Of a stretch of DNA of 64,000 nucleotides, positions 17,218 through 18,026 are shown piece after piece. The stretch lies in contig JBNRSN020000029.1 of assembly GCA_051313645.2 (NCBI GenBank), positions 11,160,001-11,224,000 on the forward strand, in the 5' to 3' direction. The notes under the pieces are model-generated. The model was given only the letters and a program-made list of their open reading frames with translations, was not told where the DNA came from and ran no database searches. Position 1 is the first letter of the stretch. Every line of letters begins with the position of its first letter. Origin of the DNA: Centroscyllium fabricii. Lineage: Eukaryota. A program made the translations under genes and the position numbers.

Positions 17218-17458
17218 CATAAAAGGAATAGAGAGTTAAGCTGATAGATTTAGATGAGGAATGATGGGACGAGGCTTGAGTGGAGCATGTATGTCAGCAT
17301 GGTCTCTTTCTGTGCCGTATGTCCGATGTAATTCGATGGAATATTCCCGCCCCTCCCCACTGCTCACTGTGACTGTAACAATTGGCAATTTCCTGTTGTT
17401 CTCCCTCTTTCCCGGCACAGACCTATAGATCAATTAACTCTTCTTTTCTGGGTTTCAG

Positions 17459-17580
17459 CGTCTAAGCGCAAATGCAAAAAACGTCATGGGACATGCCGAG
17501 CGGACGAGTGTCTCGCTGAGGAGCACGTGATCAAAGGCAAGTGCCCCGGGGGAGGCAAGTGTTGTGCGGAGAGCAGATGA
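17459..17580 (+). CDS. Beta-defensin-like peptide, terminal (mature-peptide) coding exon
   Basis: Acceptor CTCTTCTTTTCTGGGTTTCAG| in phase 1. Encodes (A)SKRKCKKRHGTCRADECLAEEHVIKGKCPGGGKCCAESR* with spacing C-x6-C-x4-C-x10-C-x5-CC and GxC motifs. TGA at 17578-17580; AATAAA at 17716-17721. No signal-peptide exon identified in the window. Confidence 0.85.
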
Positions 17581-17715
17581 GGAGAAAGGTCCAGCTGTGG
17601 GAGCCGTCCGAGGTCCAGACAGAAGCTAACTTTAATTCAGGCTCCGCTGGATTGTGCAGGCCTCGTGACCCCTGACCCTGTACCACTGCTGTCTGTATAG
17701 TGTGCTCCGCTCAGA

Positions 17716-17721
17716 AATAAA
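17716..17721 (+). terminator. Polyadenylation signal of the defensin-like gene
   Basis: AATAAA 135 nt after the stop codon, followed by a T/GT-rich tract (TATTGTTTCTCTTT) near 17755-17768. Confidence 0.7.
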
Positions 17722-18026
17722 ACTCGCTGCATTGATCACCGCCTCGTATTCATCTATTGTTTCTCTTTAGGATCGGAGTGTCACGATATTTACTGGGTGG
17801 TGCGGAAGGGTTGCAATTGGGAGCGGAGGTGATCGGTACGGAAAGCATGGAATTTGGGGGGGTGGGGGGCAAATGTACGGGGGAGTCAATTGGGAGGGAG
17901 GGACGGTGGAGATTGGAATGGTGGGGGAGGAAGGGAGGCTCCAACGCTCACGGCTCTCAGTCACACCTGAGATAGTTAAAGGAGTGATTGAGTACAGTGA
18001 TATGGAGCGACATCAGCAAAAAGAGA

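Follow-up and report, generated by a model that had tools for sequence, protein, structure and literature searches.

Between the remnants of transposable elements and a long satellite, a 64,000-nucleotide stretch of DNA from Centroscyllium fabricii (the window, to which all plain positions refer) contains a short cysteine-rich frame. The preliminary description took this frame for a beta-defensin-like exon and proposed an antimicrobial or toxin-fold peptide gene, which raises the question whether the locus harbors a genuine gene and what its product might do. The six-cysteine exon itself is real. It occupies positions 17459–17580 of the plus strand and carries the entire six-cysteine beta-defensin domain, starting in phase 1 with a split codon followed by 39 full codons (40 in total) and the stop codon TGA (17578–17580). 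The cysteines are spaced by 6, 4, 10, 5 and 0 residues. With 11 Lys/Arg against 5 Asp/Glu the peptide has a net charge of +6, and it lacks a C-terminal tail. A splice acceptor composed of a pyrimidine tract and CAG (17441–17458) precedes the exon, and the 3′ UTR (17581–17768) contains AATAAA at 17716–17721, followed by a T-rich element at about 17746–17768. Acceptor, frame, cysteine spacing, charge count, stop, polyadenylation signal and T-rich element are thus all present as originally described. Exon 2, as it is termed below, is also found in contigs from three of four public runs (two samples of one study), the best of which may be the source sample. The contigs of all four runs behave as DNA, are devoid of the splice joint and are uninformative on expression.

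The six-cysteine motif occurs once in positions 1–18026, and one out of 200 shuffles of this part contains such a motif. With a slightly different pattern, it is not found in 400 kb of control DNA. A loose cysteine motif yields 35 matches in the whole window, 34 of them past position 18026 in the satellite part. Judged by sequence, it is not the cysteine motif alone that proves a gene but the paralogs and exon 1 described below. The peptide reaches 22.8 bits with Pfam family PF00711, narrowly above the cut-off of 21, so that the beta-defensin assignment suggested earlier is borne out by the profile. With PF13841 it scores 21.1, which is under the cut-off of 22.2. At E≤10, two beta-defensin families and no other Pfam family are matched.

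Previously, a signal-peptide exon joined through a phase-1 intron had been postulated. Comparison of the 50–68 kb upstream of the window gene and of two paralogs revealed a shared low-copy segment that contains this exon. The window itself corresponds to C811:11160001–11224000. Exon 1 is located on the plus strand at C811:11148095–11148188 (L044:8095–8188), about 11.8 kb before the first base of the window. It comprises 31 codons plus one base and ends in a phase-1 GT donor, which fits the phase-1 acceptor at 17458. The exon opens with a double ATG, followed by a Leu-rich hydrophobic signal peptide of about 20 residues (assigned by hydropathy only, with a peak value of 3.44 over 11 residues) and an acidic propiece of 11–12 residues. 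Of the putative promoter boxes upstream, TATA lies at about 60 and CCAAT at 125 bases. Joining of both exons at the predicted phase-1 junction would yield a precursor of 71 residues (31+1+39 codons) and remove an inferred intron of 29,270 bases (29.3 kb), in which no second six-cysteine motif is found over its whole length. The last 17.5 kb of this intron (1–17458) contain LTR-retrotransposon remnants and other repeats. Here, four of the seven frames scanned, all antisense to the gene, match protease, reverse transcriptase, RNase H and integrase. Two or more polyprotein remnants of LTR retrotransposons, with internal tandem repeats of 45–48 bp, can be observed on the minus strand of 3300–11200; a 578-codon frame at 13–1749 gave no match in a Pfam scan. 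Taken as a whole, it is highly probable that the six-cysteine frame represents exon 2 of a genuine beta-defensin gene.

Two paralogs on the same scaffold (C811) are central to this assignment. The first was detected by protein search at 10.77 Mb, 400 kb off and on the minus strand, the second by DNA search at 11.35 Mb. The acceptor pattern of exon 2 has three matches in the genome, namely the window gene and these two paralogs, and none in a reversed control. Between the window gene and the 10.77 Mb paralog, 450 of 512 flanking bases are identical (88%), whereas the coding exon retains only 67 of 117 (57%). The promoter is 91% and the 3′ UTR 88% identical. The signal peptide shares 58 of 60 bases and differs at two of 60 positions from each of the two paralogs. 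All six cysteines are kept. When the contigs of the paralog are aligned by read mapping, exactly positions 17459–17577 stand out as "same length, diverged". A cysteine pattern that arose by chance in repeat-derived DNA is refuted by this paralog comparison and is left with a negligible probability: the satellite part does yield loose cysteine motifs and the 3′ UTR is multi-copy, but a matching exon 1 is present, the cysteines are conserved amid diverged codons and divergence is limited to the coding exon.

For the coding exons of this pair, dN and dS amount to 0.795 and 0.256, respectively (Fisher p=0.015; codon bootstrap p=0.009). Over five paralog pairs, pN significantly exceeds pS in two, and two close pairs have pN<pS. 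When the 11.35 Mb paralog is compared, synonymous sites prove to be saturated, and pS (0.88 and 0.71) exceeds pN. Because of this saturation, and because the excess of pN is significant in only two out of five pairs, homogenised flanks or limits of the alignment may add to the contrast between coding exon and flanks. Nevertheless, positive selection is likely to have driven the mature domains apart, with little change in promoter, signal peptide and UTR. The available text of an earlier study describes a positively selected mature region and a conserved signal for the beta-defensins of mammals and birds (PMC515299).

In the DNA examined, 13 six-cysteine paralogous exons were found in the genome, in agreement with the expectation that homologues conserving the cysteines should exist. 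Eleven of these are situated on C811 (three at 10.77–11.35 Mb, one at 3.5 Mb and seven at 22.7–26.5 Mb) and two on the small contigs C136 and C943. About seven of the 13 copies look intact: their exon 1 is open as far as a phase-1 GT, and AG acceptor, stop and AATAAA are present (donors of the second cluster, at 22.7–26.5 Mb, were picked by eye). DNA of exon 1 matches at least 28 places, at least 18 of them on C811, and the 3′ UTR at least 41 (40 of 159 candidates were scored); those of the 3′ UTR matches that were inspected belong to copies of the family or to fragments that carry the UTR. The concern that the segment might belong to a high-copy repeat is therefore justified for the 3′ UTR, but not for the coding exon, which is not high-copy. 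The acceptor pattern of the second cluster recurs in at least 47 places and is not found in the control. Thirty of the 47 loci were translated: three contain six cysteines, and 16 are near-identical cysteine-depleted copies spread over 12 other contigs. Most of the family copies examined are broken, and the mix of intact and dead copies, as read from their sequences, is a birth-and-death pattern. A Pfam cut-off is passed by none of ten paralogous exons (seven weak matches, three without match), and PF00711 gave nine weak matches over the genome and missed the paralogs. A further candidate, L003, looks like a chance match.

Several family copies deviate from the window gene. On the minus strand at C811:10870864, L064 is a copy of exon 1 that is open and has a phase-1 donor; the DNA examined from there to the 10.77 Mb gene showed no six-cysteine exon. 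L064 may be either an orphan or an alternative first exon. In the second cluster, exon 1 (L021, L058, L076, L080 and L092; C811, 22.7–26.3 Mb) specifies a propiece that is longer and contains an RDKR motif, which resembles a furin site, and the mature peptides are neutral or acidic where computed. One cysteine-depleted copy has spread together with its exon 1 to 12 contigs or more, where it is frequently located close to a contig end (L114, L116–L124, L130–L132, L134–L136). At L026–L029, L035 and L038–L041, on several contigs, the family 3′ UTR lies behind a different upstream stretch devoid of a six-cysteine exon.

That the family holds many dead copies bears on the state of the window gene, which could look intact and yet be silenced or have died recently, with an intron stretched about tenfold by transposons and a neighbouring satellite that shuts the gene down. 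The inferred intron of 29.3 kb compares with one of about 3.1 kb in the paralog at 11.35 Mb and contains 13 AATAAA on the sense strand. Downstream, an 18-bp satellite (18027–64000 in the window, outside the gene) starts about 300 bases past the polyadenylation signal and extends to C811:11269276, thereby separating two defensin genes by about 91 kb of repeats; it is interrupted by a 200-N gap (44082–44281), after which a non-satellite island reaches to 45517. Both the long intron and the satellite have to be counted against an antimicrobial function as well. However, start codon, both splice sites, all six cysteines, stop, AATAAA and promoter boxes of the window gene are intact, its signal peptide has drifted as little as noted above, and another intact paralog possesses an intron of about 15.6 kb. 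A silenced or dead copy is consequently regarded as quite unlikely.

An AlphaFold model calculated from ten family exons (pLDDT 77) displays three strands. In a Foldseek search with this model the first eight rows are all human beta-defensins, with a top probability of 0.96 and an r.m.s.d. of 1.3 Å over 28 columns, at a best E-value of 0.25, so that no row attains E=0.001. Big defensins (E=1.7–2.5) and alpha-defensins come after the beta-defensins, and enzyme inhibitors and channel-binding peptides of the same fold lower down. An earlier model from three sequences was poor (pLDDT 59.5) and gave a big defensin as its sole row (E=6.2). Against PDB sequences, the family profile has human beta-defensin 3 as its best match (E=0.008), whereas the single peptide retrieves a non-beta "Defensin" first (E=0.14) and human beta-defensin 3 second (E=0.45). 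In the ESM Atlas, beta-defensin clusters are named first with scores of 0.83 and 0.77, which are below 0.9 and serve as leads only. Word-index protein searches, a method that serves short diverged peptides poorly, produced no candidate. A full HMMER scan returned two proteins at E≤0.001, a cysteine-repeat protein of shrimp and a Kofleriaceae protein; both were rejected as orthologs and taken as likeness in cysteine pattern. No relative from a cartilaginous fish was obtained from the protein collections searched by word index and HMMER.

The proposed toxin fold finds no counterpart in these results. PF00819, the crotamine/myotoxin family, is silent at E≤10, and crotamine is not among the matches listed out of 60 Foldseek rows. 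Crotamine combines a beta-defensin fold with a basic N-terminus, but its C2–C3 spacing is 6, in contrast to 4 in the window peptide. Likewise, the hydrophobic N-terminal domain of invertebrate big defensins, whose C-terminal domain accounts for the weak fold rows, is absent here, where the signal peptide is followed by just 11–12 residues of propiece.

A shared fold leaves room for other tasks, and an expressed gene of this kind could have its main role in signalling (chemoattraction), in the reproductive tract or in binding to a target of host or prey. In line with this, inhibitors and channel-binding peptides occur among the lower Foldseek rows, and several paralogs are neutral or acidic by computed charge, for which reason not all family members need be membrane-active. 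The paralog on contig C136 (L087:9801–9986 with L063) looks intact and carries a C-terminal tail that is acidic and rich in Thr and Pro; Beta-defensin 126 ranks first among its Atlas clusters at 0.77, which is a lead only. The window copy, on the other hand, is strongly cationic and tailless, the myotoxin profile does not respond, and antimicrobial beta-defensins occupy the top fold rows. A main function other than antimicrobial is accordingly considered unlikely.

On balance of this analysis, the intact-looking two-exon gene most probably encodes an expressed, secreted and cationic antimicrobial beta-defensin with three disulfides, with a probability of roughly 0.7. Whereas anatomy, family, divergence pattern and position are read from the DNA, secretion, processing, disulfide pattern and antimicrobial action are attributed to the peptide by family resemblance. 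By this resemblance, the TATA promoter would drive transcription, and phase-1 splicing would join the signal-peptide exon to exon 2 across 29.3 kb. The 71-residue precursor would enter the secretory pathway, where signal peptide and acidic propiece are presumably removed and three disulfides, in the pattern C1–C5, C2–C4 and C3–C6 expected of a beta-defensin, could form in the mature peptide. Like other beta-defensins, the +6 peptide may then bind and damage anionic microbial surfaces. The gene belongs to a birth-and-death family located among MHC genes.

The commoner spacing of mammalian beta-defensins is 6-4-9-6, from which the 6-4-10-5 spacing of the window peptide differs. It fits, however, the published consensus C-X4-8-C-X3-5-C-X9-13-C-X4-7-CC (PMC515299, available part). 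As in mammalian beta-defensin genes such as those of human beta-defensins 1, 3 and 4, a signal/pro exon 1 is followed by an exon 2 with six cysteines (PMC11541337, PMC515299, as far as available). The window family and the mammalian beta-defensins, which provide its best profile and fold matches, also have in common a cationic mature domain, a conserved signal, a fast-evolving mature peptide and clustered paralogs. With teleost genes (defb1/defb2 of sea bass and seabream) the six-cysteine motif is shared, and the precursor of seabream defb2 likewise has 71 residues (PMC11541337). The accessible parts of the teleost reports nevertheless describe three exons with the cysteines split 4+2, and few genes (up to seven in salmon) that are unclustered in sea bass and seabream, in contrast to two exons and a large family here (PMC8231796, PMC11541337). 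In the window gene, six cysteines, stop and AATAAA lie in a single uninterrupted stretch, so that a teleost-type split is not seen. Chicken genes, in turn, have four exons, and the two-exon gene of mammals is proposed to have arisen by fusion of four exons (PMC515299, available part).

A class I search meant to test the lineage also showed the neighbourhood of the gene. On C811, 27 of 28 class I exon matches are spread from 0.67 to 20.97 Mb, and this scaffold also has both of the class II alpha exon matches obtained (4.26 and 5.01 Mb); a genome search for class II beta gave no match and is uninformative. The closest class I exon, at 11.4712 Mb, has the window exon at a distance of 294 kb and the 11.35 Mb paralog at 119 kb. 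No N gap separates it from this paralog, while the interval between window gene and paralog contains the 200-N gap and 19 kb outside the DNA examined. At 11.471 and 11.479 Mb (among L137–L143 and L145), two class I genes that resemble each other are convergent, and a 200-N gap interrupts the alpha-2 exon of the former. Two class I exons have PDB 6LUP, a shark molecule, as their best match, leading by 27 and 19 bits; the origin looks like a cartilaginous fish, as had been presumed.

In the accessible text of PMC515299, cathepsin B (CTSB) flanks the defensin clusters of chicken, human (8p) and mouse, in contrast to the window gene among MHC class I genes. The procathepsin B exon of this genome is located on another scaffold, C1044. 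Within 400 kb around it the six-cysteine motif does not occur, and the family profile detects nothing convincing (best E=0.03, over many weak pieces), whereas the same profile gives E=1.6e-5 to 3e-16 for five exons of the family that had been held back. A cysteine-depleted copy of the family is located 1.1 Mb away; a defensin farther from CTSB, or one with another spacing, could exist. In an MHC-related region, SPAG7 lies next to PSMB6. Teleost defb2 adjoins spag7 according to the part of PMC11541337 available, and a search of the genome for MEPCE, also a neighbour of teleost defb2, gave no match and is uninformative. The placement among class I genes instead of beside cathepsin B is the surprising part of the locus and rests so far on one assembly. 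A tentative and somewhat doubtful scenario would place beta-defensins in the MHC of the ancestral jawed vertebrate; sharks would have kept a large two-exon family interleaved with class I, and the CTSB-linked clusters of birds and mammals as well as the three- and four-exon structures of teleosts and birds would be derived.

As antimicrobials of sharks and skates, the available part of a 2019 review names only transferrin, squalamine and kenojeinin (PMC6795676). A recent MHC map of cartilaginous fish leaves defensins unmentioned in text and supplement (PMC10751288). The term "defensin" is absent from the main text of PMC7677710 and has a single match, in the reference list, in the available part of PMC10707392. 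By title and start of abstract, no publication was found that deals with shark, ray or chimaera beta-defensins, and none was found on a link between defensins and MHC in sharks, with subscription journals mostly outside the scope of both searches. The gene is hence a new beta-defensin family member in a lineage for which no description was found. By itself it is of moderate interest, and its class I neighbourhood is what specialists would notice. A large and rapidly diverging family of beta-defensins within the MHC region would close a gap at the base of the jawed vertebrates and would suggest that the two-exon gene may predate mammals. The family provides natural and very diverse antimicrobial-peptide candidates that were not returned by the protein collections searched, and whether an innate effector resided in the ancestral MHC becomes a testable question in public shark and ray genomes.
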